In this document: piece after piece, positions 854 through 32,218 of the stretch
Position numbering within the stretch: position 1 is the first letter of the stretch
Layout: each line of letters opens with the position of its first letter
Assembly (NCBI GenBank): GCA_965225955.1
Contig: CBDDBX010000037.1
Span: 308 to 64,307 of the forward strand
Length of the DNA: 64,000 nt
Direction of reading: 5' to 3'
DNA from: Candidatus Aminicenantia bacterium
Lineage (GTDB): Bacteria > Acidobacteriota > Aminicenantia > UBA2199
The notes under the pieces: generated by a model
Database searches by the model: none
What the model was told of the DNA's origin: nothing
Seen by the model: only the letters and a program-made list of their open reading frames with translations
Position numbers and translations under genes: made by a program

Positions 854-879
854 TACCGGAAAATAATTTAGTTCTTTGT

Positions 880-1065: not shown

Positions 1066-1121
1066 GTTAAGAGTTGTTAACCAGCTCATTTACCCTCCGT
1101 TTAAAAAAAGGAGAAAGTTGT

Positions 1122-3182
1122 ATGTTTAAATTGTCAACGGTGTTAATGGTTCTTCTGCTTCTGCAGGGGATAGTTTATGGGGAGAATATCAGGGGGAAAG
1201 TGTATGATAAAGAGACAACACAGCCTGTAAAAAATGCTGTAATAGCTATTAAGAACACTTTTTATAAAGGGTTCAGCAAGAAAGATGGCAGTTTCTTTAT
1301 TGATAAGGTAAAACCAGGGAATTATACAATCAAAGTTACACGTAGTGGCCTTGTACCTGAAACAATGGAAATTACTGTTGAAGAAGGAAAAGATCTTATT
1401 GTGGATTTTCCAATGCTTGAAGATCGCCTCTTCCAGCATGAAGTAATCGTTTCGGCCACAAAAACCAACCACACTGTAGGTGACGTTCCTGTATCATCTG
1501 AAGTTGTAACAAGTGGTGAAATTGAGCAGAGAAATATTACAGATATTCAGGATCTATTCACCGATGTTCCCGGTGTTAACATCAGAAGATCTCCAAACTC
1601 ATGGGGAAACAGAGGAACAATCAGTATTCAGGGACTTGATCCCCAGCATACTCTGGTTCTGGTAAATGGTCAGAAATATGTTGGTGGGCTCGGTGGTACC
1701 GATGTATCAGCTATTCCAGTTAATCTTATTGAAAAGGTTGAAGTTGTTAAAGGCCCTGCATCAGTACTTTATGGAAGTGATGCAATGGGTGGTGTTGTAA
1801 ATATTATCACAAAATCCCCTTTCAATTACGGTTCATCATTAACTGGAGGTTACAGCTATGGTAGCGATGATAACAGAGTTTTAACTCTTTCAGGTAACTA
1901 CAATAAACAGGCCCTTGCTGCATCTTTCAGCTTTACCAGCAAACATGCAGATGGTTTCAGAGAAGGAATGGATGATGTCGACGAGTATGCTATTGGTGGT
2001 GACATTAACTACAAGTTTAATCCATTCCTTACAGCAGCAGTTCACACAAACTTCCAGAAACAGGAATTCATAAAAGACGAAAGAGATCAGAAAAGATTTA
2101 AAATTTCATCAGATCTTAAATGGTCAGATAATGAAGGCTCATCTCTGTTACTGAAAACTGCATACTTCAGATATAGAAACAAAAGAAGCGGCAAAAAAAC
2201 CAGTGACTGGAAGGACCATACTATAGAAGCGGAAGTGACCGGCTCACACCTCATGGGTAAACATCTGCTTACCGGAGGTTACAGAATAAACTTCGATAAA
2301 AGAGATGATGCTGGCAAGAAATTTGAAGCAGATCAGACTATGCACAGCTTCTACCTTCAGGATGAGATTACTTTAGGTTCATTCACCTTTGTTCCTGGTG
2401 TCAGACTTGATAAGCATGACAGATGGGGTAGCGAGTTCAATCCAAAACTTAATGTAATGTATCGCTTAAATGATATTGTAAGATTCAGAGGTTCTGTGGG
2501 CCGTGCGTTCAGATCTCCTACTCTTGTAAGTCTCTATGCTCCTGAATGGAAGATGGGAAGATCAACAATTGTTAACTCAAACCCCAATCTGAAACCCGAA
2601 ACTTCTGTTGGTTACCAGCTGGGTATGGAGATGAATCTGACAACCAACGTTAAAGCCGGAGTATCAGTTTTCAAAAACGATATTGAGAACCTCATCACCA
2701 CAGTTAATGAAGTAATTCCCGGTGGTATGAAGAAGATGACTTATGAAAATGTAGCAGAAGCTATGACAAAAGGACTGGAAGTATCACTTAAAGCAGGAAT
2801 TACAAGAAACCTTTCATTCAACGGTTCATGGACCTGGCTTGATGGAGAGGATAAAACAAAAGATAAACCTCTCTACAACAGGCCAACTCACTACATCGTT
2901 TCAGGGATAAGTTTCGATATTCCTTCAGCAGATATTAATATTACTCTCAACTCAAGATATGTAGGTAAGAGATGGGCAGTTAAATCAATAAGCATGAGAA
3001 AGAAAATCGATGTTGAACTTGATCCATATGTAACTGCTGATCTGGCAATATCAAAAAAACTCTTTGATGTATGCAGAGCATGGATCAGAGTTGAGAACAT
3101 TCTCGATAAAAAAGATATTATGGATGAATACTCCTTTGATGGAGTAAAAATCTATGGAGGAGTGGAGTTTACTATTAAATAA
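1122..3182 (+). CDS. TonB-dependent receptor (BtuB/HmuR-like) with N-terminal carboxypeptidase-regulatory-like domain
   Basis: Signal peptide; plug motif IEKVEVVKGPASVLYGSDAMGGVVNIIT; NPNLKPE; ATG 1122 after AGGAGA; under B12 riboswitches. Confidence 0.9.
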   Translation: MFKLSTVLMVLLLLQGIVYGENIRGKVYDKETTQPVKNAVIAIKNTFYKGFSKKDGSFFIDKVKPGNYTIKVTRSGLVPETMEITVEEGKDLIVDFPMLEDRLFQHEVIVSATKTNHTVGDVPVSSEVVTSGEIEQRNITDIQDLFTDVPGVNIRRSPNSWGNRGTISIQGLDPQHTLVLVNGQKYVGGLGGTDVSAIPVNLIEKVEVVKGPASVLYGSDAMGGVVNIITKSPFNYGSSLTGGYSYGSDDNRVLTLSGNYNKQALAASFSFTSKHADGFREGMDDVDEYAIGGDINYKFNPFLTAAVHTNFQKQEFIKDERDQKRFKISSDLKWSDNEGSSLLLKTAYFRYRNKRSGKKTSDWKDHTIEAEVTGSHLMGKHLLTGGYRINFDKRDDAGKKFEADQTMHSFYLQDEITLGSFTFVPGVRLDKHDRWGSEFNPKLNVMYRLNDIVRFRGSVGRAFRSPTLVSLYAPEWKMGRSTIVNSNPNLKPETSVGYQLGMEMNLTTNVKAGVSVFKNDIENLITTVNEVIPGGMKKMTYENVAEAMTKGLEVSLKAGITRNLSFNGSWTWLDGEDKTKDKPLYNRPTHYIVSGISFDIPSADINITLNSRYVGKRWAVKSISMRKKIDVELDPYVTADLAISKKLFDVCRAWIRVENILDKKDIMDEYSFDGVKIYGGVEFTIK

Positions 3183-3193
3183 CTTAATTTCCG

Positions 3194-3898
3194 ATGTTTG
3201 AAATATTATTACTTATTTTTGTAATAACAGCTGTTTTTGAACTGGTAAACCTCTCTTTCCGGCAGGAGAGGGGTTACCTCTTCTTTTTTGTTGTTGTCCT
3301 TGCTGCAGGGTTAATGCTTGCATACCCTGCAGCAACAACAGTAAATCTGAAAGATCTTCTCAGGGTAACAGAAAGAGATAATCTGTTTGCTTCAATAACT
3401 CTTGTTCTTATAGCTGAATCCTTTATACACCTGCTTTTGTCGGGGCAGTACGCTGTAAAAGAAGCGGGATTGCGTAAAGAGCAGAATAAGAGTCGGTTTT
3501 TAATGTATATTCCTTCACCTCTGTTCCTTACGGGGCTCTTCTTTTGTCAGATAGTTCTGTTCAATCAGGTGGAAGGCATCTCTTTTGGCTGGCTCGCAAC
3601 GATTATGGTCTCAGGAATTGCAATAACTCTTTTTCTGGTGCCTCTTATTTTAAGGAAACTTATCAGTAGCACAGAAAGGCTGTTGTTGAGGTTCAGACTG
3701 GGCCTTATAAGAGTAATTACTGCGCTGGCTCTTCCCCTTGTTGCTGTAGGAGCAAAACCTGCAGGAACAAATCTGGAGTTCAATTCCATAGATCTTGGGC
3801 TGCTTCTTGGAGTTCTGCTGATCTGTGGTGGAACTGGTTATTTTATGGAACCGGTATTTCTGTATTTTAAAAAGTATTTAAGGAAAAAAAATGGGTAA
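3194..3898 (+). CDS. Polytopic membrane protein, HmuT/BtuT-like
   Basis: About 7 hydrophobic segments; sits before ExbB-like, DUF2149 and CobN-like genes as in hmu/btu loci. Confidence 0.6.
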   Translation: MFEILLLIFVITAVFELVNLSFRQERGYLFFFVVVLAAGLMLAYPAATTVNLKDLLRVTERDNLFASITLVLIAESFIHLLLSGQYAVKEAGLRKEQNKSRFLMYIPSPLFLTGLFFCQIVLFNQVEGISFGWLATIMVSGIAITLFLVPLILRKLISSTERLLLRFRLGLIRVITALALPLVAVGAKPAGTNLEFNSIDLGLLLGVLLICGGTGYFMEPVFLYFKKYLRKKNG

Positions 3899-4487
3899 TC
3901 TAACAAATATTCTATTTCATATATCTTCCGGGCTACTTATTCCTGTAGTTGTTCTGTTAATAGTATTTTTTGCTCTATCAATCTTTCATCTTGGTAACTA
4001 CTATGACCTCTATATAAAAAGAAGAAAGTTCCGTCGTTCTCTGGAAACCATGAGAGAGAATAGTCCATGGGATTGTGAAGATCCCGATTTCACTGTTCTG
4101 GAAGGGAATCTTATGTTTTTGGAATCCCTTGAAAACATGAAAAGCAGAGGCTTCTCCTCTGTTGAGAGTGGCCGGATAATTGCGGATTACAGTTTTAAAA
4201 CAGACAGAAAACTCAATATCGGTCGCATTCTCATGAGAACAGGTCCGATGCTGGGACTTATGGGTACTCTTATACCAATGGGGCCGGCTCTTACGGGCCT
4301 TGCCGCTGGTGATATCAACTCAATGGCTGTAAATATGCAGGTAGCTTTTGCAACAACTGTAACCGGCATATTTGTTGGTGGAGCAGGTTATGTGCTGACC
4401 CTTGTAAAGCAGAGGTGGCGTACAGAAGACATCACAGCGCTGGAGTATATTTACGATAAGATGACAGAGGGGCAGGGAGATAATTAA
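3891..4487 (+). CDS. MotA/TolQ/ExbB proton-channel family protein (HmuU-like)
   Basis: GPMLGLMGTLIPMGPAL and AFATTVTG motifs. Confidence 0.9.
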   Translation: MGNLTNILFHISSGLLIPVVVLLIVFFALSIFHLGNYYDLYIKRRKFRRSLETMRENSPWDCEDPDFTVLEGNLMFLESLENMKSRGFSSVESGRIIADYSFKTDRKLNIGRILMRTGPMLGLMGTLIPMGPALTGLAAGDINSMAVNMQVAFATTVTGIFVGGAGYVLTLVKQRWRTEDITALEYIYDKMTEGQGDN

Positions 4488-4828
4488 TGGCTCTTAAGAA
4501 GTATTACCGGAATGATTCTGTCGAAGATGATGATCCGATGAGTGGAATGGCCAACCTCTTTGACCTGGCAATGGTTTTTGCTGTTGCGCTGATGGTTGCT
4601 ATGGTCTCCTTTTTCAGAATGAACGATTTTTTAACTAAAGAGAATGTTACGGTTGTTAAGGACCCTGGTAAGAAGAGTATGGAAATAATCGTAAAAAAAG
4701 GGAAAAAAATAGAAAAGTACAAAGGGTCTGATAAGAAGGGAAGTGGAAAAGGTCAGAAGGTAGGAACTGCTTACAGACTGGAGAGCGGAGAGATAATCTA
4801 CATTCCCGAAGGTGAAGAAAATGAGTAG
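4487..4828 (+). CDS. DUF2149 protein (HmuV/ExbD-like)
   Basis: DPMSGMANLFDLAMVFAVAL and C-terminal GTAYRLESGEIIYIPE. Confidence 0.9.
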   Translation: MALKKYYRNDSVEDDDPMSGMANLFDLAMVFAVALMVAMVSFFRMNDFLTKENVTVVKDPGKKSMEIIVKKGKKIEKYKGSDKKGSGKGQKVGTAYRLESGEIIYIPEGEENE

Positions 4829-7800
4829 AAAAATGGTTGCCCTCATTGCATTGGTTTGTATTATTGCAGGAGGATATTTTATATATGAAAAGTGGTTTGG
4901 TAAGACAGTTATAACTCTTATCAATTTCAGGGACTTCCAGTATGCAGAGTTAAAAGAGGTAGTAAAAGACCTCAATGTAGAGTTAAAAAGAGTTAAGTTC
5001 GATAAAGATAATCTCATATCCCTTACAGATGAGAGTATTGTTTTTTTGCGCTGTATGGGATTGCGGGTTGTGCCGGAGATGAAAAAACTCCTTAAAGAGG
5101 CATCAGATTCAGGGGTAAAAATCACAACCTTTTCACCAGGTTCTAATGTTGCTGATATTCCAAATATTGGAGATGAAGCAGCTAATAAACTCAGATTGTA
5201 TAAAACAAACGGAGGAAAGAGGAATCTGAAGAACCTCTTTCTCTATACACGAAAAAATATAGATAAGAAAATTGTTAATGATAATATAGATGAGCCGGAA
5301 GATATTCCGGGGGATCAGTTCTTTTACCTGGGAGACCAGGAGTATTTCAACTCATATAAAGAGTATCTTGAGTTCTACAAAAAGAGAGGACTCTATAAAA
5401 AGGGTGCTCCAAAAGTAGCACTCTTCTCAACAATTATTGGTCCCAGAACAATAAAAAGAGGCCATGTGGACGAAATGATAAAGGGGCTTGAGAAGAAAGG
5501 GTTCAATGTTTTTCCTGTATGTGCATGGAAAAAGAGGTTTGAATTTCTTAAAGAGATTGAACCTGATGTGGCTGTAGTAATGGCCTTTTTCAGATTCACC
5601 TCTGAGCAGAAAAAACTGATTAAATATCTTAAAGATAAAAAAATCCCCATGTTATGCCCTGTTATGGTGCATGAACCTGTTGAGAAGTGGATGAAATCCC
5701 AGAACGGCATTATGGGTGGAATGCTTACTCACTCAATTGTAACACCGGAAACTGATGGGGGCATAGAGCCAATGGCTTTTGCTGCTCAGTTTAAAAACGA
5801 AGAAGGACTATATCTTTACGGGGCTCTGAAAAAGCGGATAAAAAGAATCTGTACAAGAGTAGAGAACTGGATAAAACTTAAGAGAAAAGCCAACAGTAAG
5901 AAGAAAATAGCAATTGTATACTATAAAGGCCCCGGAAAGAATGCTATGGTGGCAGGGGGAATGGAGGTTGTTCCTTCTCTCTACAAACTTCTTAAAGAGT
6001 TAAAAAAGAGAGGATACAATACCGGAATACTACCGGAAGATGAGCAGGCCTTTTACGAGATAATTCAGCAGAAAGGCCCTGTAATTGGCTCATATGCAGA
6101 AGGCAGTATGGCTGAATATATGAAAAACGGTGATCCCCACCTTCTGCCTGTTCAGGAGTATAACAACTGGCTCGATAAAGACCTTGAGCTGGATTTAAAA
6201 GCAGAACTTATAAAACAGCAGGGGGCTCCTCCGGGAAACTACATGGGAGTAGTAAGAGGAGAGAAGAGGTATCTTGCAATTACAAGGGTGAAGTTTGGTA
6301 ATATTACCCTTCTGCCCCAGCCTATGCCAGGTGGAGGTAAAGATACTTCAAAACTGGTTCACGGAGTAAAAAAAGCGCCCTCACACAACTATATAGCAGC
6401 CTATTTATGGATAAAAAATGGCCTTAAAGCAGATGCTCTTATGCATTTTGGTACCCACGGTTCTCTGGAGTTTACTCCCTGGAAGCAGGTAGCCCTATCA
6501 GATTACGACTGGCCGGATCTGCTTATTGGGGATATTCCACACCCTTATCTCTACATTATAAACAATATCGGTGAAGCGGTACTTGCTAAAAGAAGAACTG
6601 CAGCTGTACTGGTATCCCATCTTACTCCTCCATTTACAGAAAGTGACCTCTATGGAGACCTTGCAAAACTTGATGATAAGGTACATGCATGGATGGAAGC
6701 AGGAGATCCTCTTCTTAAGAGAAGTATTGAAAATAAGATCCGTACAATGGTTAAGGCCATGGATATGAATAAAGATCTTCAGATAAAAGATGAAGATATG
6801 AGAGGAAACGAATTCATAGAAAGAGTTCATGACTATCTGCATAAACTTGAAAGTGCAAAGATAACCCAGGGTCTTTATACAGTTGGTAAAGGTTACTCTT
6901 CAAAAGATCTTGAAGATACCGCCAGATTAATGGTTATTGACCCTCTGTCAGTCTCAATAGCCCGTCTCAGAATAGCTAAAGGTCTGGAAAGAGCAACTGT
7001 CTTTGATAATCCCCACAACTTTAGTGAGAAGTACAGAAAGCCTGCAGAAAAGATGATTGAAAAAATGATCTCAGGTGAAAAAAGTGCTGAAGAGTACATA
7101 TCAAAAGAGGATATGGAAAGGGTAAAGAGATACGATATGTATCTTGAGAATAAGAGAAAAAAGAAGAAACGTATGATGTCCATGATGATGTCCGGTGCAA
7201 AACCCGGGGGAATGATGGGTATGATGTCTTCAATGATGAAAGGCCCTCCGCCGGGAATTATTACCGAAGCAGTTGTTGCAGATCTGAAGCTATGTCTCAA
7301 TCCTGAAACTCTTAAAGCAGAACTTAAGGGTTCAGGATACGAGAGAGTTGCTGAACTCAGCCGCAGAGCATCTCTGTTCAAAAGGTTTGGAAAGATGAAA
7401 GGTGGAAAAGGCACTGACAAGTGGAGCACTATCTTTTTTGAACTGCTGGGTAAAAAAGGAAACAGTGGATTACTTAAAAAATCTGAAGATTTAATAAAAG
7501 TTGCAGAGAAGAGAGCCCTTGGGAAAGAGAAAGAGTATGTGTCTCTTGTGAAAGGTGTGTATGACAACCTTAAAGCTGTTAACATCTATAGAGGATATCT
7601 GAAAGAGTCACCAGTCAGGGAAATTGAAGCTATGGCAACAGTGCTGGAAGGAGGTTATATTGAGCCCTCTCCCGGAGCTGATCCTATAAAGAATCCCCGT
7701 TCAATACCTACAGGTCGTAATCTCTATGCAATAGATGCTGAAGCAACTCCAACTGAAGAGGCCTGGGAAACCGGGAAGATGCTGGCTGATAAGATTATTG

Positions 7801-9197: not shown

Positions 9198-9231
9198 TAT
9201 GTGATCTATTTAAAAAGATACAGGAGAACTT

Positions 9232-12175: not shown

Positions 12176-12861
12176 GTACCTTTACCGGAGTTGGTGTTGG
12201 TCCCGGAGATAGGTCCCTCATTACTCTCAAAGCAGTAGAGGCAATCAAAGATTCCGATGTTGTTGTAGTACCTGTAAAGAGGGAGGGGGCAGAAAGTGTT
12301 GCTCTCAACATTGCAAAAGAACATATAGGTGAGGGCACAGATGTTGAGAAACTCCTATTTCCAATGGTAAGAGATGAAGATAAGCTGAAGAGAGAGTGGC
12401 AGAAAGGGGTTGAAAAGGTAACAGAACTACTTGATAAGGGACTGGAAGTTGTGTTTCTCACTATTGGAGACCCCATGCTCTACAGTACCTGCTGGTATGT
12501 ACTGAAAGATATAAAGGCCAGAGGTTATAAAACCGCTGTTGTGCCGGGTATAACATCTTTTTCTGCTGCAGCTGCAACCCTTCAGACTCCTCTTGCAATG
12601 GGAGATGAAGCTTTTACTGTAGTACCTGTAACCCCGGGGCAAAAGTCTCTGAAAGAGGGAGTCAGGAACTATGCTTTTCTTAAGGTTTCCTCGGATTATG
12701 AGGCTTTAAGAGAAGAACTTAAAGAAGAGAAACTTATTGAAAGGAGCCGCCTTATTATTGAGTGCGGTAAAAGTAAAGAAGAGATAGTAGACAATCTTAA
12801 TAATAGAGGAGACGAGATTCCTTATCTCTCTCTGATACTCACTGGAGGAGATAACCAATGA
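12172..12861 (+). CDS. cbiL: Cobalt-factor II C20-methyltransferase
   Basis: GVGVGPGD, LFPM, TIGDPMLYST and VPGITSF motifs. Confidence 0.92.
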   Translation: MSTFTGVGVGPGDRSLITLKAVEAIKDSDVVVVPVKREGAESVALNIAKEHIGEGTDVEKLLFPMVRDEDKLKREWQKGVEKVTELLDKGLEVVFLTIGDPMLYSTCWYVLKDIKARGYKTAVVPGITSFSAAAATLQTPLAMGDEAFTVVPVTPGQKSLKEGVRNYAFLKVSSDYEALREELKEEKLIERSRLIIECGKSKEEIVDNLNNRGDEIPYLSLILTGGDNQ

Positions 12862-13613
12862 AAATCTGGTTTGTAGGAGCCGGTCCCGGAGATCCCGATC
12901 TTATTACTGTAAAAGGTGCGGGGCTTGTGGAAAAGGCTGATGTAATTATATACGCAGGGTCACTGGTTAACCCTGAAATACTTAACCGCAGAAAAGATGG
13001 TTCAGTAGTACATAATAGTGCCTCAATGACTTTGGAAGAGGTAATAGAGGTAACTGAAACTGCAGTAAAGGAAGGGAAAATGGTTGTGAGGCTCCATACC
13101 GGAGACCCTGCAATATATGGAGCTATAAGAGAGCAGATGAGGGAGCTGGATAAGAGAGGAATCTCTTATGAAGTTATTCCCGGAGTAAGCTCTTTTTCTG
13201 CTGCAGCAGCTTCAATGAATATGGAGTTTACTCTGCCCGGAGTAAGCCAGACTCTTATTCTGACCCGAATAAAAGGAAGAACTCCGGTACCTGAAAAAGA
13301 GAACCTTGCATCCCTTGCTTCACATAAAGCTTCAATGGCGATTTTTCTAAGTGTACATAAGATCGATGAGGTGGTTAAAGAGCTTCTTGTGCACTACCCC
13401 TCAACAACTCATATAGCAGTTGTTCAGAAAGCCTCATGGGAGGACCAGAAGGTTGTAAAGGGAACTCTCGAAGATATTGCAGAAAAGGTTGAAAAAGCGG
13501 ATATAACAAAAACAGCCCAGATTCTTGTAGGCGATTTTCTGGGGGATGAGTTTGATAACTCTCTTCTTTATGATGGAAGTTTTTCCCATATGTTCAGGAG
13601 CAGTGGGTCTTGA
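12858..13613 (+). CDS. cbiF: Cobalt-precorrin-4 C11-methyltransferase
   Basis: VGAGPGDPDLITVKG, YAGSLV and RLHTGDPAIYGAIREQ motifs. Confidence 0.95.
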   Translation: MKIWFVGAGPGDPDLITVKGAGLVEKADVIIYAGSLVNPEILNRRKDGSVVHNSASMTLEEVIEVTETAVKEGKMVVRLHTGDPAIYGAIREQMRELDKRGISYEVIPGVSSFSAAAASMNMEFTLPGVSQTLILTRIKGRTPVPEKENLASLASHKASMAIFLSVHKIDEVVKELLVHYPSTTHIAVVQKASWEDQKVVKGTLEDIAEKVEKADITKTAQILVGDFLGDEFDNSLLYDGSFSHMFRSSGS

Positions 13614-14668
13614 TTGCTGTAATTGCTTTAACCCGGCAGGGAGCAGAAACAGGACGCAGGATTACAGAGATGGACTCTCCTGCATCTCTTTTTCTGAGAG
13701 AAAATCTTGCGGAAGAGTTCAGTGGCAGCCGTGTAATGGAAGGAACAACAATCTATGAAATGGTTGCTGATCTATGGAAAAGATACGACTCTATTGTTTT
13801 TGTTGCAGCTGCAGGAATAGCTGTAAGAGCAGTAGCACCTCTCTTAAAACATAAGAGCTCCGATCCTGCAGTGGTTGTTGTTGATGAGAAGGGTAAGTTT
13901 GTTATTCCTATTCTTTCGGGACATATTGGAGGTGCAAACCGACTGGCTTCAAAAATAGCGGAACATATAGGTGGTACCCCTGTTATTACTACAGCTTCAG
14001 ATGTTAATGGTATAGTTGCCTTTGATGAGATGGCTGCTGAACGGGGCTGGAAAATTGAGAACCTGCATCTCCTTAAACACGTTACAGGAACTCAAATAGA
14101 TGGGGGAAAGGTGGGGTACTACTCTGATATGGAAACCGGTTTTCCCATCCAAAAATCAGTTGTTATCCTTGATAAACCCGATTCAGAACTCCCCAGTGTG
14201 GTTGTTTCAGACAGATTACTCAATATTGAGTGCAAAGAACCTACCGTTTTCCTGAGGCCTTCAACAATATGTCTGGGAGTAGGATGTCGCAGAGATACTC
14301 CGGTAGATAAGATTCTGAAGGCAGTTGAAGATGCCTGCAAAGAGGCGGGAATATCCACTCTTTCCCTGGGGTCTCTGGCTACTATTCCTCTTAAAGCAGA
14401 TGAGCCGGGAATGGTTGAAGCTGCTAAACACCTTGGAGTGCCTTTTCTGATTATTGATGAAGAGAGAGTTGCAGGCTGTGAAGGAGATTTCAGAGGTTCA
14501 GAGTTTGTAGAAGCCGTTACCGGTGGTAAGGCGGTGGCTTCCCCCTGTGCCCTCCTGTCAGCTGAAGAGCCGGAACTGCTGTTGGATAAGTTTATAAGAG
14601 AAGGAGTAACGGTTTCAGTGGTAAGAGATTTAAAGAGATATAGTAGAGAGGCTAAAAGAAATGGATAG
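13610..14668 (+). CDS. cbiG: Cobalt-precorrin-5A hydrolase
   Basis: GIAVRAVAP, DPAVVVVDE, LSGHIGGAN, PVITTASD and GVGCRR motifs. Confidence 0.93.
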   Translation: MIAVIALTRQGAETGRRITEMDSPASLFLRENLAEEFSGSRVMEGTTIYEMVADLWKRYDSIVFVAAAGIAVRAVAPLLKHKSSDPAVVVVDEKGKFVIPILSGHIGGANRLASKIAEHIGGTPVITTASDVNGIVAFDEMAAERGWKIENLHLLKHVTGTQIDGGKVGYYSDMETGFPIQKSVVILDKPDSELPSVVVSDRLLNIECKEPTVFLRPSTICLGVGCRRDTPVDKILKAVEDACKEAGISTLSLGSLATIPLKADEPGMVEAAKHLGVPFLIIDEERVAGCEGDFRGSEFVEAVTGGKAVASPCALLSAEEPELLLDKFIREGVTVSVVRDLKRYSREAKRNG

Positions 14669-15398
14669 AGGTGTTCTCCATATTGCAGGAATAGGTCCAG
14701 GTAACCCGGATCAGATGAGTGAACGGTGCAGAGCTGTTATTGCTGAAGCAGAAGTTGTTGTGGGCTACCACGTATATACCGAACTGATTACAGAGCTTAT
14801 TGCTGGAAAAGAGGTGATCAATTCGGGTATGACCAGAGAAACTGAAAGGTGCAGAATTGCTGTTAAAAGAGCTGAAGGGGGAAACCGGGTTGTTCTTGTA
14901 AGCAGCGGTGACCCCGGAGTCTACGGTATGGCGGGACTTGCACTTGAAATTGCAGGAGAAGAGAGAGCTGATATCGATATTGAGGTTGTTCCCGGCATTA
15001 CTGCAGCAACTTCAGCCGCATCAGTGCTTGGTGCTCCTCTTATTCACGATTTTGCTGTAATAAGCCTCAGTGACAGACTTACATCTATGGAACTTATTGA
15101 AAAGAGACTTGATCTGGCAGCTGAAGGGGATTTTGTTATTGTGCTCTATAACCCCAGAAGTCGTGGAAGGCAGGAGCATCTGGGAAAGGCAGTTGATATT
15201 ATAGGGAAACATCGTAAACCCGATACTCCTGCAGGAATTGTATGGAGTGCCGGGAGAGATGATCAGAGAAAAACTATCACAGATCTCTCTGGTATCTGCA
15301 GTTGCGATGTGGATATGTTTGCAACAGTTATTATAGGTAATTCAGAGACAGTTGTTATTGACGGGGGAATGGTAACACCCAGAGGTTATCGCCGGTGA
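14661..15398 (+). CDS. cbiH: Cobalt-precorrin-3 C17-methyltransferase
   Basis: SSGDPGVYGMAG, GAPLIHDFAVISLSD, YNPRS and TPRGY motifs. Confidence 0.95.
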   Translation: MDRGVLHIAGIGPGNPDQMSERCRAVIAEAEVVVGYHVYTELITELIAGKEVINSGMTRETERCRIAVKRAEGGNRVVLVSSGDPGVYGMAGLALEIAGEERADIDIEVVPGITAATSAASVLGAPLIHDFAVISLSDRLTSMELIEKRLDLAAEGDFVIVLYNPRSRGRQEHLGKAVDIIGKHRKPDTPAGIVWSAGRDDQRKTITDLSGICSCDVDMFATVIIGNSETVVIDGGMVTPRGYRR

Positions 15399-16141
15399 TC
15401 CTTCTTCTTGGTGGAACAACAGAGAGTGCTCTCTGTGCCGGAGTCCTTAAAGAACTGGGGCTAAGGTTCTGTATATCTACAGCTACAACTTACAGTGAGA
15501 ATCTCTACTCACCTGATATGAAACTGGTAAGTGGCAGGATGGATTATCAGAATATGGTTGATTTCATAAGAGATGAGAAAGTTACTATGGTTCTGGATGC
15601 CACCCACCCCTTTGCAGGTAATGTAACTGACAATGGTATAATAGCTGCAGAAATCTGCAATATCTCCTTCCTGAGATATGAACGGGAGAGCTGGATACCT
15701 GAAGATATGACTGGTATAGATTACTGTAGGGATTACAGAACTGCAGCTGAGATTGCAGGGAAGAGATCTGGTAATGTACTGTTTACCACTGGTAGTAATC
15801 ACGTGGAGATTTTTACAGAGTATATCAATAAAAGAAGGCTCTTTGTCAGGGTTCTCAATGTGGAGGAGTCGATAAACAAATGCCTCTCTGCAGGTCTCGA
15901 AGAGAACCACATTATTCCCTTTCGTGGAAGAGCTTTGGTTGAACAGAATCTTGAGATTATAAGAGATCGAAATATAGAACTGCTGATAACAAAGGAGAGC
16001 GGTATTACCGGCGGGCTGAAAGAGAAGGTTCTTTCTGCTCAGATAGCCGGAATTTCATGCCTTATTATCAGTAAACCTGAATTCAGTGGAATCAGAACCC
16101 TGAATTCAGAAGAGGAACTGAAGAGATATTTTATAAAATAG
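15395..16141 (+). CDS. cbiJ: Cobalt-precorrin-6A reductase
   Basis: LLGGTTE, DATHPFA, RYER and TKESGITGG motifs. Confidence 0.93.
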   Translation: MILLLGGTTESALCAGVLKELGLRFCISTATTYSENLYSPDMKLVSGRMDYQNMVDFIRDEKVTMVLDATHPFAGNVTDNGIIAAEICNISFLRYERESWIPEDMTGIDYCRDYRTAAEIAGKRSGNVLFTTGSNHVEIFTEYINKRRLFVRVLNVEESINKCLSAGLEENHIIPFRGRALVEQNLEIIRDRNIELLITKESGITGGLKEKVLSAQIAGISCLIISKPEFSGIRTLNSEEELKRYFIK

Positions 16142-16152
16142 TGGAGGGGTAT

Positions 16153-17868
16153 ATGAAAAAATTAATTTTATTGATTCTGTTATTAAGTTCATTTGTAATG
16201 GCAGAAAACAGTAAAGGTATTCTGGTAGTGAGTTTTGGAACCTCTTATAAAGAGGCGGAACAGAAGGGTATTTTACCTGTTGAAAAACTTATAAGGGAGA
16301 ATATGAAAGACCGTAAGTTCTATCGGGCTTTTACATCATCCTTTATAAGAAAAAAGATCCTCAAAAGAGATGGGATTAAGATCTTCTCTCCCACAGAAGT
16401 TCTTGAGGATATGAAGAAGGCGGGAATAGTGGACGTTGTTATTCAGCCACTGCACATAATTCCCGGTGCAGAGTATGAAGAAATCGTAGCTGTAGCTGGT
16501 AAATTCAGAAAAGAGTTTACCCGTCTGGCTCTTGGGAGTCCCCTTCTGTCATCTGAAAGAGATTATAAAGAGACAGCAGAAGCGGTTGCAGGAGTTCTGA
16601 AAAAAGGTGAACCCTGTGTACTTATGGGACACGGCACTCATCACAAAGCCAACAGCTGTTACAGCAGATTCCAGAAGTGTGCAGAAGAGATGAAGCTTCC
16701 TTTTCTTATGGGAACAGTAGAGGGGCATCCTGAACTTAAAGATGTAATTTCTGTTCTTGAAAAGAGAAAGATTAAAAGCTTCAGACTTGCTCCCTTCATG
16801 CTTGTAGCAGGAGATCATGCTCTTAATGATATGGCTGGGGATGAAGATGATTCCTGGAAAGTTATTCTCAGGAAAAAAGGTTTTAAACCTGATCTTTATA
16901 CCCGTGGTCTGGGAGAAAATCTTAAAATAAGACAGATTTTTCTTCGCCATGCTCTGGAGGCTGAAGGAGAGGCCGGAGCAGCAGGTATTATTCCGGCTGA
17001 AAGGATTAAAAAAGGTAGTAAGGTCAGTTATACTGATCCTGAAGGCAGAGAGTGGTCTCTGCCTTTCAAACCCCCAAGAGTTGTGTTTTGTCACAACTCT
17101 TTGCTGGAGATCTGGTATATGGCTGGAGGAGAAGCTGTGGGACGGGTTAAAGGTAATATAACAGAAGGAACCCCTGAAGAAAGAGTTCCTGTAATCGGAT
17201 TACTTGGTAACCCGGGAGTTGAGAGAATTGTTTCTGTAAAACCTGACCTTGTGGTTCTTTCAGGAAATTTCAGAAAGCATGAAGCTACAGCAAAACTCCT
17301 TGAAAGTGCAGGTATAAAATGTCTGCTTCTTAAATATACTACCTACAGTGATTTTCTGGAAATCCTTGAGCTATTCTCTTATCTTAACGGAACTGTTAAA
17401 GAAACAGGTAAACTGCTGGCAGATATTACTACTTCTGTAGATGAGGTGGTTAGTAGAAAGAGAGAAAAAAAGCCGTCAGTGCTGCTTCTTTTTGCAACAC
17501 CCAAGAATATCACCTGCGAACTTCCTGCAGGTTCAACAGGCTTCTGTATAAGAATGCTGGGGGGGAGGAATATCGCTGAAGGTGCTCCGGTTAAAGGTGG
17601 GCGCCGGGTTATGTACAGTATGGAAAAGATTGTAGCTGTTAACCCGGATGTTATTCTCATAAAAACAATGGGTGATATGGATGTGTGCAGAAGAAAACTG
17701 AAACAACAGTTTAACAGCCATGGGGGCTGGGGCTCTCTTAAAGCTGTGAAAGAGCATCGCATACACTATCTTCCAAAAAAATATTTTATGTACAAACCAA
17801 ACCGTGCCTATCCGGCTGCATTCAGATATCTCTATAAACTACTATACCCTGTAAAAGGTAAAGCTTAA
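16153..17868 (+). CDS. cbiK: Signal-peptide-bearing CbiK cobaltochelatase fused to a BtuF/FepB-type periplasmic binding domain
   Basis: Signal MKKLILLILLLSSFVMA; SFGTS, RAFTS, MGHGT, GTVEG and VAGDHA motifs; C-terminal half has ERIVSVKPDLV, EKIVAVNPDVI and WGSLKAVK. Confidence 0.88.
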   Translation: MKKLILLILLLSSFVMAENSKGILVVSFGTSYKEAEQKGILPVEKLIRENMKDRKFYRAFTSSFIRKKILKRDGIKIFSPTEVLEDMKKAGIVDVVIQPLHIIPGAEYEEIVAVAGKFRKEFTRLALGSPLLSSERDYKETAEAVAGVLKKGEPCVLMGHGTHHKANSCYSRFQKCAEEMKLPFLMGTVEGHPELKDVISVLEKRKIKSFRLAPFMLVAGDHALNDMAGDEDDSWKVILRKKGFKPDLYTRGLGENLKIRQIFLRHALEAEGEAGAAGIIPAERIKKGSKVSYTDPEGREWSLPFKPPRVVFCHNSLLEIWYMAGGEAVGRVKGNITEGTPEERVPVIGLLGNPGVERIVSVKPDLVVLSGNFRKHEATAKLLESAGIKCLLLKYTTYSDFLEILELFSYLNGTVKETGKLLADITTSVDEVVSRKREKKPSVLLLFATPKNITCELPAGSTGFCIRMLGGRNIAEGAPVKGGRRVMYSMEKIVAVNPDVILIKTMGDMDVCRRKLKQQFNSHGGWGSLKAVKEHRIHYLPKKYFMYKPNRAYPAAFRYLYKLLYPVKGKA

Positions 17869-18851
17869 TGGTAAAACTGCTCCTCTATCTTATGTTTCCT
17901 CTTATTGCAGGGCTTGTGGCTCTCACTACCGGAGCTGTTGATGTTCCGGTAAAGGAAATTTTTAAAATCTTCTCCGGTAAAGGAGATGAGATGCTTACTC
18001 AGATTATTATGAATATAAGGCTCCCCAGAGTTCTTGTGTCCGGCCTCTGCGGTGCAGCACTTTCAACTTCCGGTGCAATTCTTCAGGGAATAATGAGAAA
18101 TCCTCTTGCAAGCCCTAATATTATTGGTGTTTCTGCAGGAGCAGGTCTTGGGGGGATGATTGTTCTCATACTTCTGCCGGAATTTTCTGCTCTTGTAACT
18201 CCTGTGGCTTTTGGTTCTGCACTTCTTACAACCCTTCTTATATATTTTGTCGCCTGGCGCGGGGGAGCTGAGCCTTTGAGACTTATTCTTTCAGGTGTTG
18301 CAGTTTCAGCTTTTCTGGGGTCGGGAATAAGCAGTCTTCTTATATTTTTCCCCGACAGAGTACACAATGTTGTAGGTTTCATGGTTGGTGGTTTTGGAAC
18401 AGCCTCATGGAATGAGTTCAATATTTCCTGGGTATATATTGCTGTGGCCCTTATTATATCTTCATTAATTGCAAACAGGCTCAATATTCTGGGGCTTGGA
18501 GATGATTCAGCTGGTAATCTGGGTTTAAGAGTTGAATTGAATCGTTTTATATTTATTGCACTTGCATCACTTCTTGCAGCTGCAGCTGTAAGTGTTGCCG
18601 GCCTTCTGGGGTTTGTAGGATTAATTGTACCCCATGCTGCCAGAATGGTTGTGGGAGCTAACTATAAATACCTGGTTCCTGCATCTGCAATATTTGGTGC
18701 GGGACTTCTAATAAGCTGTGACACTCTTGCAAGAGTAGCACTGGCGCCGGTTGAGTTACCGGTTGGAGTAATAACCTCTTTTCTGGGGGCTCCGTTTTTT
18801 CTATATTTATTGAGGTACAGATTTAAACATGGCAGTAATAAAAGCAGATAG
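17868..18851 (+). CDS. FecCD/BtuC-family ABC permease
   Basis: IRLPRV, RNPLASP, GFVGLIVPH and ELPVG motifs. Confidence 0.93.
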   Translation: MVKLLLYLMFPLIAGLVALTTGAVDVPVKEIFKIFSGKGDEMLTQIIMNIRLPRVLVSGLCGAALSTSGAILQGIMRNPLASPNIIGVSAGAGLGGMIVLILLPEFSALVTPVAFGSALLTTLLIYFVAWRGGAEPLRLILSGVAVSAFLGSGISSLLIFFPDRVHNVVGFMVGGFGTASWNEFNISWVYIAVALIISSLIANRLNILGLGDDSAGNLGLRVELNRFIFIALASLLAAAAVSVAGLLGFVGLIVPHAARMVVGANYKYLVPASAIFGAGLLISCDTLARVALAPVELPVGVITSFLGAPFFLYLLRYRFKHGSNKSR

Positions 18852-19596
18852 TATATCTCTGGGTTACCAGGAGAAGATAGTTGTTAAAGATATCTCCCTT
18901 GAGATAGATAAGGGGGATTTTGTAGCTCTTGTAGGTCCAAATGGCTCTGGTAAATCGACACTTCTTAAGGCTATCTGTGGAAACCTGCAGCCTGCTAAAG
19001 GAACTGTATGGGTAGAAGAGAAAGTAGTTGAAGAGTATAGCGCCGGAGAACTGGCATTAAAAGTCGCCTGGCTGCCACAGAATCCCGTAATACCGGAGGG
19101 AGTCTCTGTTGAGGAGTTTGTAGGATATGGACGCTTTCCCCACAGGAACTGGCGGGGTATGTCTTCGGCAAAGGACAGAGAGATTGTTACCCGATCCATA
19201 GAGTCTGTGGGGCTGAACTCTTTAAAAGAGAGATTCCTTACCCGGCTTTCCGGTGGGGAGCTGCAGAGAGCCAGAATTGCTATGGTAATGGCTCAGGAAG
19301 CAGAAATAGTAGTTTTCGATGAACCTACAACCTTTCTGGATATTGCTCATCAGTATGAGATTCTTAATCAGATAAAAGAGCTTAATCAGAATCTGGGAAT
19401 AACAGTCGTTATGGTTGTTCATGACCTGAATCAGGCAGCCTCTTTTGCCCGGAGAATTATTGTTCTTGATAATGGAGGAATATATAGAGATGGTTCAGCT
19501 GAAGAGGTTATTACCGAAGATACTCTGAGAGAGGTTTTCGGGGTTAAATCCCGTATTATGAAATCTCCCTTCTACGTAATTGTAGAAGGCGTCTGA
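18829..19596 (+). CDS. BtuD/FepC-type ABC ATPase
   Basis: GPNGSGKST, LSGGELQR, DEPT and HDLN motifs. Confidence 0.93.
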   Translation: MAVIKADSISLGYQEKIVVKDISLEIDKGDFVALVGPNGSGKSTLLKAICGNLQPAKGTVWVEEKVVEEYSAGELALKVAWLPQNPVIPEGVSVEEFVGYGRFPHRNWRGMSSAKDREIVTRSIESVGLNSLKERFLTRLSGGELQRARIAMVMAQEAEIVVFDEPTTFLDIAHQYEILNQIKELNQNLGITVVMVVHDLNQAASFARRIIVLDNGGIYRDGSAEEVITEDTLREVFGVKSRIMKSPFYVIVEGV

Positions 19597-32217: not shown

Positions 32218-32218
32218 T

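Follow-up and report, generated by a model that had tools for sequence, protein, structure and literature searches.

A cobalamin riboswitch-preceded operon of a Candidatus Aminicenantia bacterium that may use a scavenged tetrapyrrole to build the corrin ring

The closest described systems act on heme and other metalloporphyrins. HmuS is described as a membrane-bound, NADH-dependent heme de-chelatase for which His-538 is essential (PMC12583661). BtuS has been tied to metalloporphyrin salvage (Rocha 2018 citing Rodionov 2003; PMC6460266), and de-chelation of heme persisted in B. fragilis mutated in both btuS1 and btuS2 (PMC6460266). P. gingivalis is described as missing the steps that make precorrin-2 (Shelton 2019 citing Roper 2000; PMC6461909), and its exported CbiK homolog, FetB, inserted Co and Mn into a porphyrin in vitro and, with hemin, gave no reverse chelatase activity (PMC13065792). 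The same source cites the periplasmic CbiK of D. vulgaris as a binder of metallated porphyrins (PMC13065792). Elsewhere, IhtB/FetB is presented as a protein of iron acquisition, putatively a reverse ferrochelatase, with iht expression in P. gingivalis unresponsive to iron or heme starvation (PMC12094164), and the CbiK fold has been likened to periplasmic binding proteins (PMC12583661). The salvage idea developed here is not wholly new, being kin to the P. gingivalis B12 'enigma', to Iht/FetB and to HmuS/BtuS. Like P. gingivalis, the bacterium studied here lacks precorrin-2 synthesis genes and has an exported CbiK homolog. In contrast to the heme or metalloporphyrin role given by these sources for Iht/FetB and other exported CbiK homologs, we propose corrin salvage; those published roles, the FetB result with hemin and the B. 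fragilis double mutant count against this proposal.

The window, a stretch of 64,000 nt, contains a single + strand operon at 869-19596 with tightly packed genes (intergenic distances of -59 to +34 nt) and a cobalamin riboswitch in front. The gene set named in the earlier note (TonB receptor, HmuT/U/V-like proteins, CobN-like protein, Cbi enzymes, CbiK-SBP fusion and importer) was recovered in full on this strand:

869..1040, + strand: cobalamin riboswitch aptamer (RF00174, 64.8 bits vs gathering score 31.5, model 1-189 in full)
1122..3182, + strand: TonB-dependent outer-membrane receptor, HmuR lineage (Plug, beta-barrel and CarboxypepD_reg domains)
3194..3898, + strand: HmuT-like polytopic inner-membrane protein (~7 predicted TM segments, from seven hydrophobic stretches)
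3891..4487, + strand: MotA/ExbB-like proton-channel protein, HmuU-like (PF01618, 36 bits)
4487..4828, + strand: DUF2149 protein, HmuV-like, in the ExbD position (PF09919, 119 bits)
4821..9197 (ORF from 4812), + strand: HmuS-type CobN-like class I chelatase/de-chelatase (PF02514, 998.7 bits)
9232..9864, + strand: CbiC, cobalt-precorrin-8 methylmutase (PF02570, 259.8 bits)
9861..10976, + strand: CbiD (TIGR00312, 397.7 bits vs cut-off 200)
10969..11595, + strand: CbiE, cobalt-precorrin-7 C5-methyltransferase (TIGR02467, 173.2 bits vs cut-off 92.9)
11537..12175, + strand: CbiT, cobalt-precorrin-6B C15-methyltransferase, decarboxylating (TIGR02469, 133.1 bits vs cut-off 78.3)
12172..12861, + strand: CbiL (TIGR01467, 210.4 bits vs cut-off 163.25)
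12858..13613, + strand: CbiF, cobalt-precorrin-4 C11-methyltransferase (TIGR01465, 343.4 bits vs cut-off 259.65)
13610..14668, + strand: CbiG, cobalt-precorrin-5A hydrolase (CbiG_N, CbiG_mid and CbiG_C domains)
14661..15398, + strand: CbiH, cobalt-factor III C17-methyltransferase / ring contraction (TIGR01466, 317.4 bits vs cut-off 246.35)
15395..16141, + strand: CbiJ, cobalt-precorrin-6A reductase (PF02571, 208.3 bits; TIGR00715, 160.6 bits vs cut-off 129.85)
16153..17868 (ORF from 16141), + strand: CbiK + Peripla_BP_2 fusion (PF06180, 261.6 bits; PF01497, 85.9 bits)
17868..18851, + strand: FecCD/BtuC-type permease of a type II ABC importer (PF01032, 315.3 bits)
18829..19596, + strand: ABC importer ATPase (PF00005, 113.1 bits)

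The RF00174 aptamer, overlooked in the earlier note, lies directly upstream of the operon and is one of three cobalamin riboswitches in the genome. All nine Cbi enzymes, at 9232-16141, gave full-length family matches. As previously claimed, the operon contains no hem, cobA/cysG, cbiA/P/B, cobU/S/T or cbiMNQO genes. For the late genes and the cobalt transporter, this is true of the operon but not of the genome: CbiA/P-type amidases, CbiB, CobD, BtuR, CobU, CobS and CobC are encoded outside it (late B12 genes on contigs C6, C34 and C18), as are a CbiM-CbiQ-CbiO set and a separate canonical BtuB-F-D-C system under its own cobalamin riboswitch. As far as gene assignments go, the pathway is complete in the genome from cobalt insertion onward.

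Genes for the preceding steps were sought genome-wide. No cobA/cysG was found, only below-cut-off cross-matches to CbiF, CbiH and CbiL, and there was no hemB, hemC, CbiX, second CbiK or ferrochelatase. The SirC domain gave only marginal matches of 22-25 bits, in ORFs of 478-503 aa. A whole-genome tblastn search with verified hemA, hemC, cobA-hemD, hemB and hemL queries showed hemA and hemD to be absent as well, matching only the operon methylases and two aminotransferases at ~30% identity. The lack of cysG, hem genes, a cytoplasmic CbiK/CbiX and any but marginal SirC matches favours salvage and, judged by its genes, the organism is unable to synthesize either precorrin-2 or sirohydrochlorin.

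Another explanation would be that the precursor genes sit in the 6.5% of the genome that was not assembled, or that the contig comes from another organism, synthesis then being of the ordinary de novo kind. The assembly leaves some room for this (45 contigs, 93.5% completeness, 2.57% contamination), but the absence extends to five separate precursor genes, and hemB occurs in 0/24 family relatives, which argues against an assembly gap; it is present in 2/16 class relatives. The tetranucleotide correlation between the operon contig and the genome is 0.994, and the ABC-F gene of the contig shares 87% identity with that of family relative G012 and 65-67% with five others, compared with a UvrA yardstick of 63-73% to relatives. 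Since composition and ABC-F identities agree, the contig was assigned to the genome. X1 contigs span 8729-10038 and 14033-16359, and sequencing runs of two further studies covered 28/30 and 26/30 operon bins; therefore, the operon junctions are not assembly artefacts. We consider this explanation very improbable. CbiK, CbiD, CbiB and CbiA/P were each found in 0/40 relatives which, together with the hemB count, points to a tetrapyrrole-auxotrophic ancestry and a later gain of everything from cobalt insertion onward.

The only CbiK of the genome is the fusion protein, which consists of a signal peptide (1-17), a CbiK class II cobaltochelatase domain (~20-270), a short linker and a class III SBP domain (~296-571). 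Its N-terminus, MKKLILLILLLSSFVMA followed by ENSKG, carries a Sec signal peptide predicted from hydropathy, and an SD-like GGAGGGG lies 5 nt before ATG 16153. P0002, a homolog with 70% identity, has an identical signal peptide and architecture. The CbiK domain scored below the NCBI equivalog cut-off (259.8 vs 400). In the PDB, it matches the biosynthetic S. enterica CbiK best. His, Glu and His are retained at putative catalytic/metal-binding positions, which we take to correspond to the catalytic residues 145/175/207 of S. enterica CbiK. In the AF2 model (pLDDT 89.7; linker 274-277 disordered), the CbiK fold matched 1qgo (S. enterica CbiK) with a TM of 0.94, and the SBP domain matched 5joq at 0.84 and the heme binder IsdE at 0.83. 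On the basis of residues and modelled fold, the CbiK domain looks catalytically competent. It must act outside the cytoplasm, because a signal peptide precedes it and its SBP fusion partner is functional only there.

The adjoining importer is distinct from the cell's B12 importer, since a separate BtuB-F-D-C system exists and the operon SBP, permease and ATPase share 23/31/28% identity with it, compared with 34-37/51-55/42-44% with the CbiK-linked importers of loci L063 and L027. With the sole class II chelatase exported and fused to a binding protein, the simplest reading is that cobalt is inserted outside the cytoplasm and the product then imported. Alternatively, an already cobalt-loaded intermediate (cobalt-sirohydrochlorin or cobalt-precorrin) released by other microbes could be imported, with the exported CbiK as a capture and hand-over domain and no ring-supply role for the CobN-like protein. 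All earlier pathway steps are missing from the genome, the fusion with an SBP and importer is equally compatible with a binding role, and the sources cited above liken the CbiK fold to periplasmic binding proteins (PMC12583661) and cite periplasmic CbiK homologs as binding metallated porphyrins (PMC13065792). However, the domain keeps all three putative catalytic residues and is closest to a biosynthetic enzyme, FetB is reported as catalytically active with Co and Mn (PMC13065792), and a pure binding role leaves the fusion of two binding modules unexplained. We regard import of a cobalt-loaded intermediate as unlikely, though it is the strongest of the alternatives.

Extracytoplasmic cobalt insertion was next set against 50 other CbiK-bearing genomes, taken from the 80 closest CbiK loci (33 exported, 17 cytoplasmic-type). 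Exported CbiK was linked to an importer, as in this operon, with a FecCD permease in 28/33 exported against 1/17 cytoplasmic-type loci, and cobA was present in 11/33 against 15/17 genomes; these contrasts are descriptive, since a single independent pair on well-supported branches permits no valid significance test. The pattern clusters by phylogeny: only five changes on the CbiK tree are needed to account for the exported state, and 23 exported proteins form one clade. Both cobA and hemB are missing from 22/33 exported-CbiK genomes, and hemB is missing in 24/24 of the cobA-less genomes surveyed, although joint absence in MAGs does not amount to two independent observations because the genes are often neighbours. 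Of the 22 genomes with an exported CbiK and no cobA, 17 have that CbiK as the sole class II chelatase found, and seven of eight checked clusters of this type carry a B12 riboswitch. Exported CbiK is not confined to salvagers, since 11/33 of these genomes own cobA and hemB; the exported CbiK was again the sole class II chelatase found in five of the 11 (L014, L046, L065, L088 and L092).

Two loci suggest another arrangement, in which the precursor enters free of metal and receives its cobalt from the CobN-like protein as a forward cobaltochelatase, or after import, with the exported CbiK as an accessory. In L063, whose genome has neither cobA nor hemB, SBP-FecCD-ABC genes come after a cytoplasmic CbiK, and P0045 likewise combines an importer with a CbiK that has no signal. 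The aerobic B12 pathway uses CobN proteins as subunits of its cobaltochelatase, and the CbiMQO set is relevant here: a cytoplasmic Co/Ni importer would be needless for B12 if cobalt arrived chelated, which counts against extracytoplasmic loading. In the present genome, however, the only CbiK is exported and SBP-fused, and CbiX, ferrochelatase and a second CbiK were not found. Class I forward chelation also requires ATP-dependent partner subunits, and the topology predicted for the CobN-like protein places its body in the periplasm, where ATP is unavailable. This arrangement seems to us distinctly improbable.

The CobN-like protein matches B. thetaiotaomicron HmuS (9d26) over its full length with 1127 bits. 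Hydropathy, the sole basis of the export and anchor predictions, placed TM segments at residues 5-23 and 1435-1453, predicting a membrane anchor at each end and a periplasmic body; the earlier proposal of export or anchor signals on both chelatase-fold proteins is borne out at this level. The de-chelation site (site 2) shared with HmuS is intact, H546/E585/D1206/H1207 corresponding to HmuS H538/E577/D1208/H1209, and invariant in A1. At site 1, in contrast, Phe stands in place of the heme ligand His-254 (HGR 254-256 reads FFR), while Met-79 is retained and Gln-299 is His. His-254 is conserved in 71/72 other CobN-like homologs; the sole exception, L162, is the only other locus among the homologs compared in which an exported CbiK follows the CobN-like gene, so that the linkage is seen at two loci. 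From HmuS homology and the altered heme site in two CbiK-linked homologs, we infer a de-chelatase role and a siroheme-like substrate. That the protein strips metal from an imported tetrapyrrole (a 'metal swap') may be so, and is the weakest step of the route.

The uptake genes have paralogs in an hmu-type module on contig C6, which adjoins feoB and a flavodoxin gene, has no cobalamin riboswitch and encodes a CobN-like protein that retains His-254. The receptor (ORF from TTG 1074, with ATG 1122 the likely start) shares 40% identity with the C6 receptor vs 24% with the genome's BtuB, and scored below all NCBIfam equivalog cut-offs (hemin 196.5/316.85, B12 193.9/599.7). Identities to the C6 module are 26% for the HmuT-like protein, 46% for the MotA/ExbB-like protein and 77% for the DUF2149 protein. 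Profile searches matched no Pfam or NCBIfam family to the HmuT-like protein (3194-3898); in Atlas, it fell in hypothetical clusters only, apart from a distant match, at 0.88, to a DUF2162 'putative transporter'.

Given this ancestry, the transport and chelatase genes might serve heme, iron or cobalt acquisition and merely be co-transcribed with cbi genes that are fed by an unrecognized non-orthologous precursor pathway or are non-functional, recently transferred cargo. HmuS takes iron out of heme (PMC12583661), Iht is interpreted as an iron-from-heme system (PMC12094164), the receptor is of the HmuR lineage, IsdE is among the nearest structures of the SBP domain, and the operon is slightly richer in GC than the genome (41.8% vs 38.6%). 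Against this stand control by a B12 riboswitch without obvious iron-linked context, where the separate C6 module adjoins feoB and flavodoxin; the loss of His-254; and the reported indifference of P. gingivalis iht to iron or heme starvation (PMC12094164). Moreover, it was only in this lineage that nine intact ring enzymes were acquired, together with the amidases and loop genes that three other contigs carry, which argues for a working pathway. We therefore find such a role doubtful, slightly more so than import of a cobalt-loaded intermediate.

On balance, and with somewhat more confidence than doubt, we favour a B12-repressed operon that turns a scavenged tetrapyrrole into the corrin ring. 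Under B12 scarcity, its riboswitch would permit expression. The HmuR-lineage receptor, energized by the ExbB-like and DUF2149 proteins, would take an exogenous tetrapyrrole at the isobacteriochlorin level into the periplasm, sirohydrochlorin or a metallated form of it being the candidate. There, the HmuS paralog would most likely remove the resident metal, such as iron from siroheme, which would allow the exported CbiK domain to load cobalt and pass the product to its fused SBP domain for docking on the FecCD/ABC importer. Once in the cytoplasm, cobalt-sirohydrochlorin would be turned into cobyrinic acid by CbiL, H, F, G, D, J, E, T and C, and CbiA, CbiP, CbiB, CobD, BtuR, CobU, CobS and CobC, encoded elsewhere, would complete the cofactor. 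The metal-swap salvage put forward in the earlier note thus stands as regards salvage with extracytoplasmic cobalt loading and subsequent import, which genomic context supports well, whereas demetallation and the siroheme-like substrate, like the site and order of chelation, are inferences. If the route is correct, B12 would be built from a scavenged precursor by a bacterium that is unable to make the ring precursor itself.

The region from 869 to 19596 on the forward strand is a single transcription unit, in which 17 genes with intergenic gaps of -59 to +34 nt lie behind a cobalamin riboswitch that was missing from the earlier note's account of the operon:

869-1040, forward strand: cobalamin riboswitch (RF00174, 64.8 bits against a gathering threshold of 31.5, full model 1-189)

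Gene-by-gene annotation with Pfam and NCBIfam confirmed the observation in the earlier note that uptake, chelatase and cbi genes are joined in one operon, and its gene list was found to be correct. The first genes encode a TonB-dependent receptor, a seven-transmembrane protein without a family (HmuT-like), a MotA/ExbB-like protein, a DUF2149 protein and a 1458-residue protein of the CobN/Mg-chelatase family. They are followed by CbiC, D, E, T, L, F, G, H and J, each full length, and then by a protein composed of a CbiK domain at the N-terminus and a Peripla_BP_2 substrate-binding domain at the C-terminus (the CbiK-SBP fusion, 16153-17868, forward strand), a FecCD permease and an ABC ATPase. 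An Atlas search with the HmuT-like protein returned hypothetical clusters only.

Just past the operon, on the reverse strand, is a 142-aa ORF without a Pfam or NCBIfam family (19733-20161), and tandem erythromycin-esterase-family (PF05139) genes lie immediately downstream on the forward strand (20264-21598 and 21618-23000), both scoring far under the EreA/B/D cut-offs. Further into the window, the region 30577-46094 is rich in accessory and defence-like genes and without housekeeping genes. Encoded there are three six-bladed propeller proteins of the DUF5128 family, a 950-aa KAP-family NTPase, a protein with a Fic domain, and a PIN-domain protein adjoining a DUF4325 protein.

The CbiK-SBP fusion begins with MKKLILLILLLSSFVMA followed by ENSKG, and its start is positioned 5 nt behind a GGAGGGG motif. 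A protein from another assembly (P0002), 70% identical to the fusion, has the same signal and architecture and contains no internal Met from which a signal-less form could start. Export and anchoring were called by hydropathy plus logic. On this basis, the earlier note's proposal that both chelatase-fold proteins carry export or anchor signals was borne out, by the signal peptide of the fusion and by hydrophobic helices at residues 5-23 and 1435-1453 of the CobN-like protein, flanked by basic residues. The hydropathy scan also covered four Cbi enzymes (CbiC, D, L and J) and detected no export-type hydrophobic segment in them. Since a substrate-binding domain can serve a FecCD permease only from outside the cytoplasm, the CbiK domain fused to it must be located outside as well.

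The CbiK domain scored 261.6 bits with PF06180 (cut-off 26.2), and the fusion reached 259.8 with the CbiK equivalog model NF047852, under its cut-off of 400. Its best PDB match was S. enterica CbiK (1qgo; 191 bits, 42% identity, TM 0.94), followed by P. gingivalis FetB (170 bits, 37% identity over the Foldseek alignment) and the periplasmic CbiK of D. vulgaris (160 bits); the Foldseek TM scores against three CbiK structures were 0.94, 0.92 and 0.89. The MGHG, VEGHP and AGDHA motifs of the fusion align with S. enterica His145, Glu175 and His207, which we take to be the catalytic residues. Likeness to the S. enterica enzyme, a cytoplasmic sirohydrochlorin cobaltochelatase of the anaerobic pathway, is seen both in the ranking of matches and in the retained His/Glu/His positions. 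Unlike that enzyme, the fusion begins with a signal peptide and ends in a substrate-binding domain, and its gene adjoins a chelate-type ABC importer rather than a CbiMNQO cobalt transporter. D. vulgaris CbiKP (2xvx/2xvz; TM 0.92) belongs, like the fusion, to the CbiK family of class II chelatases and is exported. In the fusion, however, the position of CbiKP His96, presumably the heme-bridging residue, is occupied by Glu. D. vulgaris is said, in work by Lobo from 2008, to have a cytoplasmic CbiK for B12 synthesis as well, whereas the exported CbiK of our host is the sole one and is fused to a binding protein.

An AF2 model of the fusion, built from a 20-sequence alignment, had a pLDDT of 89.7, with two confident domains and a disordered linker at 274-277; the pTM was 0.58, the mutual orientation of the domains being undefined. 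The binding domain, which by family, fold and neighbours is a class III (cluster A-II) substrate-binding protein of FecCD/BtuCD-type importers, matched PF01497 with 85.9 bits, and the FecCD permease and ATPase genes come directly after it. Its Foldseek matches included Lmo2184 (5joq; TM 0.84) and the heme binder IsdE (TM 0.83), with siderophore binders lower and no BtuF among the matches listed. The BtuF equivalog model NF002894 gave a score of 19.8 against a cut-off of 234.

CbiK and Peripla_BP_2 domains were combined in one protein only in P0002 and P0045 among the best 120 of 4825 database matches, and within these best matches the fusion is rare. P0045 consists of a signal-less CbiK, an internal lipobox-like segment and then the binding domain; CbiK is physically tied to an importer component here too, in a topology that differs from that of the fusion. 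CbiK was also repeatedly found fused to transport or additional domains. Many proteins of 550-560 aa, including P0064-P0075, join CbiK (PF06180) to an ABC ATPase (PF00005), one of them annotated at source as an ECF transporter ATPase. A PF07833 domain is present in some CbiK proteins, and lengths of 750-980 aa also occur. Tandem double CbiK domains or genes occur at L040 10001-11566 and L071 4300-5927 (a Ruminococcaceae MAG and an archaeal MAG).

Three RF00174 matches were identified in the host genome. Besides the one heading the operon, one controls a canonical BtuB-BtuF-BtuD-BtuC set, and the third is associated with a DASS/CitMHS-type transporter:

G000:C26:56509-56697, reverse strand: third cobalamin riboswitch of the host genome (57.9 bits)

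The C26 riboswitch is upstream of a 468-aa transporter gene of the Na_sulph_symp family (L202 10680-12086, reverse strand), an unusual gene to be under B12 regulation. The binding domain, permease and ATPase of the operon are 23, 31 and 28% identical to host BtuF, BtuC and BtuD, respectively. That the operon importer is simply the B12 importer of the cell was ruled out by this low similarity together with the separate, riboswitch-controlled Btu set. The same three components are 34-37, 51-55 and 42-44% identical to the CbiK-adjoining importers of L063 (a Proteiniborus MAG) and L027 (a Treponemataceae MAG), and L063 shares the gene order cbiC-D-E-T-F-G-H-J, CbiK, SBP, FecCD, ABC. The receptor shares 24% identity with host BtuB and 40% with its counterpart in a second module of the hmu type elsewhere in the genome:

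G000:C6:75992-84414 (L114 7992-16414): second module of receptor, HmuT-like, ExbB-like, DUF2149 and CobN-like genes

Because receptor and importer are of different origins, the operon looks, from these sequence comparisons, as if an hmu-type module and a laterally acquired cbi/CbiK/importer block had been joined.

The gap in precursor genes that the earlier note had seen in the operon extended across the host assembly (3.95 Mb, 45 contigs, 93.5% complete), where no cobA/cysG, hemA-D genes, CbiX or second CbiK were found and SirC was marginal only. In family searches of the genome, cobA/cysG models returned only cross-matches to CbiF, H and L, all below cut-off; a second CbiK, hemB, hemC, CbiX and ferrochelatase were not found; and the SirC domain gave matches of just 22-25 bits in ORFs of 478-503 aa. 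A tblastn search of the genome with a verified hemA/hemC/cobA-hemD/hemB/hemL set from another locus (L017) recovered only the operon's own methylases and two aminotransferases (~30% identity). Later steps of the pathway are present. Contig C6 carries CbiB, a CobD-type aminotransferase, BtuR/CobO, CobS, CobC and CobU, two CbiA/CbiP-type amidases are encoded on C34 and C18, and a CbiM-CbiQ-CbiO set is located on C32 with none of the three RF00174 matches nearby. A second CbiE-like methylase, full length and 38% identical to the operon CbiE, lies beside CobU on C6 (L115 9003-9647 and 9714-10337, both on the reverse strand), away from the ring operon.

This gene complement resembles that of P. gingivalis, described as lacking the precorrin-2 synthesis steps (Roper 2000, cited in Shelton 2019, PMC6461909), and of the "tetrapyrrole precursor salvagers", of which Shelton 2019 distinguishes five types; in that study, only ALA salvage was verified experimentally (PMC6461909). 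As in that class, the route from cobalt insertion to cobalamin is complete and the precorrin-2 genes are missing: CbiK, L, H, F, G, D, J, E, T and C were found together with CobU, CobS and CobC, in the absence of precursor genes. Unlike P. gingivalis and the salvager class as described there, the host has the genes for uptake, chelation and ring synthesis physically joined in a single operon under riboswitch control, and a candidate salvage route can thereby be named.

We considered whether the operon or the missing genes could be artefacts of binning or assembly. The tetranucleotide use of C37, the contig carrying the operon, correlates with that of the genome at r = 0.994, and its ABC-F gene is 87% identical to that of the family relative G012 and 65-67% identical to those of five other family relatives, while UvrA, on another contig, is 63-73% identical to its counterparts in relatives. 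A mis-binned contig was ruled out by this composition and these identities. The operon alone has a GC content of 41.8% against 38.6% for the genome, and a tetranucleotide correlation of 0.941 against 0.98 ± 0.024 for randomly drawn chunks of equal size. An assembly chimera at the module junctions was likewise ruled out: Logan contigs from sequencing run X1 bridge 8729-10038 (CobN-like/CbiC/CbiD) and 14033-16359 (CbiG to the fusion), and both halves are covered by X2 and X3, runs of two other studies that bear the label coral metagenome (28 and 26 of 30 bins, at 95-99+% identity). Loss of the precursor genes through assembly incompleteness was rejected because hemB is present in none of the 24 family relatives. 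With hemB in only 2 of 16 class relatives as well, the precursor auxotrophy is ancestral. CbiK, CbiD, CbiB and CbiA/P were each found in 0 of 40 relatives, and it follows that the host lineage alone gained the pathway from cobalt insertion onward, over four contigs, and gained no earlier step. Gain of these steps without the preceding ones pays off only with an externally supplied ring.

To place the exported CbiK in context, the 80 closest CbiK loci in species genomes, mostly of Clostridia and spirochaetes, were compared. At 48 of the 80 loci, a script flagged an export signal (signal peptide or lipobox) preceding the CbiK domain. Fifty loci were used for whole-genome searches, the other 30, mostly short or near-duplicate, having been dropped before any result was obtained; after curation, 33 were classed as exported and 17 as cytoplasmic-type. 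The latter set includes L063 and four Treponema loci in which, judging by ORF lengths, a separate signal-less CbiK gene lies beside an SBP gene. A FecCD permease was encoded at the CbiK locus in 28 of 33 exported cases versus 1 of 17 cytoplasmic-type cases, and cobA scored over its cut-off in 11 of 33 exported-CbiK genomes versus 15 of 17 cytoplasmic-type genomes. The two cytoplasmic-type genomes without cobA are those of L063 and L036, in both of which an SBP gene adjoins CbiK. All 24 cobA-less genomes, and three others, are missing hemB; since the two genes frequently lie side by side, the lack of both does not amount to two observations. Searches for a second CbiK or a true CbiX found neither in 17 of the 22 exported, cobA-less genomes, and a B12 riboswitch was present in 7 of 8 exported-CbiK, cobA-less clusters checked.

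A Treponema MAG (L064 4416-15354) clusters an exported CbiK with a TonB-dependent receptor, FecCD, ABC and cbiH-J-E-T...D genes in a genome without cobA and hemB. The cluster has no CobN-like gene, and by its gene content is a diderm analogue of the operon minus that gene. On the CbiK tree, five changes suffice to account for the exported state, and 23 of the exported CbiKs form one well-supported clade; an independent-pairs test on the tree yielded one pair only on supported branches and was thus without power. In five exported-CbiK genomes cobA is present as well as hemB, and no further class II chelatase was found. The comparison suggests that the pairing of exported CbiK and chelate importer, the core of the route proposed below, is common among Clostridia and spirochaetes without cobA and hemB.

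The CobN-like protein (4821-9197, forward strand) aligns end to end with the heme de-chelatase HmuS of B. thetaiotaomicron (9d26; 1126.8 bits, residues 12-1457 against 14-1458). It scored under every cut-off of the CobN and BchH equivalog models (for example, 520.6 against 822 for TIGR02257), and no partner subunits of the ATP-dependent CobN chelatase are encoded within the operon. HmuS is described as having single transmembrane helices at both termini, a site 1 where heme is bound at Met-79/His-254, both stated to be conserved among HmuS sequences, and a site 2 where de-chelation takes place at His-538/Glu-577 and Asp-1208/His-1209, with H538A abolishing turnover (PMC12583661). BtuS, a B12-linked CobN-like protein, has been predicted to act in metalloporphyrin salvage (Rodionov 2003, as cited in PMC6460266). 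With HmuS and with BtuS1/BtuS2 of B. fragilis, the operon protein shares full-length homology, the N- and C-terminal anchors, the Met-rich insertion and the conserved site-2 residues (H546, E585, D1206 and H1207, invariant columns in alignment A1); its HFGTHGSLEF motif aligns with HmuS. The adjoining receptor, HmuT-like, ExbB-like and DUF2149 genes are likewise those of an hmu neighbourhood. Unlike HmuS and BtuS, it is under B12 riboswitch control with corrin-ring genes downstream, and its site 1 is altered: Met-79 is kept, His-Gly-Arg 254-256 is replaced by Phe-Phe-Arg, and Gln-299 by His.

His-254 is kept in 71 of 72 other N-terminal regions, which came from 71 of the 83 loci examined. The sole exception is L162, which is also the only other locus with a CbiK gene after the CobN-like gene. 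The L162 CbiK (282 aa) has a signal peptide and an intact His/Glu/His set, and cbiA/P and cbiB lie ~6 kb upstream. The CobN-like paralog paired with an exported CbiK has thus lost the heme-ligating His twice while keeping the de-chelation site (n=2), which suggests that its substrate may be a compound other than heme b. The C6 paralog (1557 aa) retains His-Gly-Arg and Gln-299; its module is followed by a DUF2325 gene, adjoins feoB, flavodoxin and DUF2023 genes, has no riboswitch, and probably constitutes the actual heme-iron (Hmu) system. The flavodoxin gene beside it on C6 fits the electron-donor idea put forward in the HmuS paper (PMC12583661).

Close homologs of the CobN-like protein were found in 3 of 300 other genomes sampled from the phylum of the host. 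A metagenome scan with the single CobN-like protein as query found no relative, and a scan with alignment A1 recovered 78 HmuS-like loci. None of the 78 has corrin-ring genes beside the CobN-like gene, and a regular-expression screen found no cobalamin riboswitch in them, as did Rfam for the nine that were run through it. The screen recovered 9/9 RF00174 controls and missed the one AdoCbl-II control, with no matches in 2.8 Mb of reversed sequence and none in the 83 loci.

The closest known systems also include the Iht system of P. gingivalis, described as comprising the receptor IhtA, the exported CbiK-like lipoprotein IhtB/FetB, the binding protein IhtC, the permease IhtD and the ATPase IhtE; it has been read as an iron-from-heme system, with expression reported as unresponsive to iron or heme starvation (PMC12094164). 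In vitro, FetB is reported to have inserted Co and Mn into a porphyrin analogue and to have shown no reverse activity on hemin (PMC13065792). The operon shares with Iht as described there a TonB receptor, an exported CbiK homolog, a binding protein, a FecCD-type permease and an ATPase. Unlike Iht, the operon encodes CbiK and the binding protein as a single polypeptide, bearing a Sec signal instead of a lipobox, and its genes share a transcript with cbiL-cbiC under B12 riboswitch control. The operon unites Hmu-like, Iht-like and Cbi parts under one B12 control, with CbiK fused to the binding protein. We found no proposal of an exported CbiK with an ABC importer as a corrin-precursor salvage route in the open-access literature searched.

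Taken together, gene content, regulation, lineage history and comparative context provide good support for a salvage reading, in which the B12 ring is built from a scavenged tetrapyrrole precursor. Cobalt loading outside the cytoplasm followed by import is the most economical mechanism. Scavenged sirohydrochlorin would receive cobalt outside the cytoplasm from the exported CbiK, and the cobalt-loaded product would be imported by the dedicated BtuCD-like ABC system. In diderm variants, the HmuS paralog without the site-1 His may first strip iron or another metal from siroheme-like compounds, which would constitute a periplasmic metal swap; on our analysis, the metal-swap step and the identity of the substrate are no more than plausible inferences. 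As a generalization, we tentatively put forward, with more doubt than confidence, that a hitherto unrecognised extracytoplasmic entry into anaerobic B12 synthesis might exist in several phyla, combining cobalt loading by exported CbiK, BtuCD-like import and, in diderms, metal swap. If this were true, Iht/FetB of P. gingivalis would be reinterpreted, and its 26-year-old B12 "enigma" would be resolved.

Many anaerobes possess corrin-ring enzymes and are missing precursor synthesis, and how their ring is supplied has been an open question ever since P. gingivalis was reported on in 2000. Because a receptor, a candidate de-chelatase, an exported cobaltochelatase-SBP and an importer are co-transcribed under a B12 riboswitch, the operon offers a concrete, testable route, and an old open question becomes directly testable through it. 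If the route is real, it would change the B12-producer status of organisms in gut, rumen and host-associated communities, and sirohydrochlorin-type compounds would join the shared public goods of microbes. It would also assign a different physiological role to exported CbiK homologs such as FetB/IhtB, and extend HmuS-type de-chelatases beyond heme.
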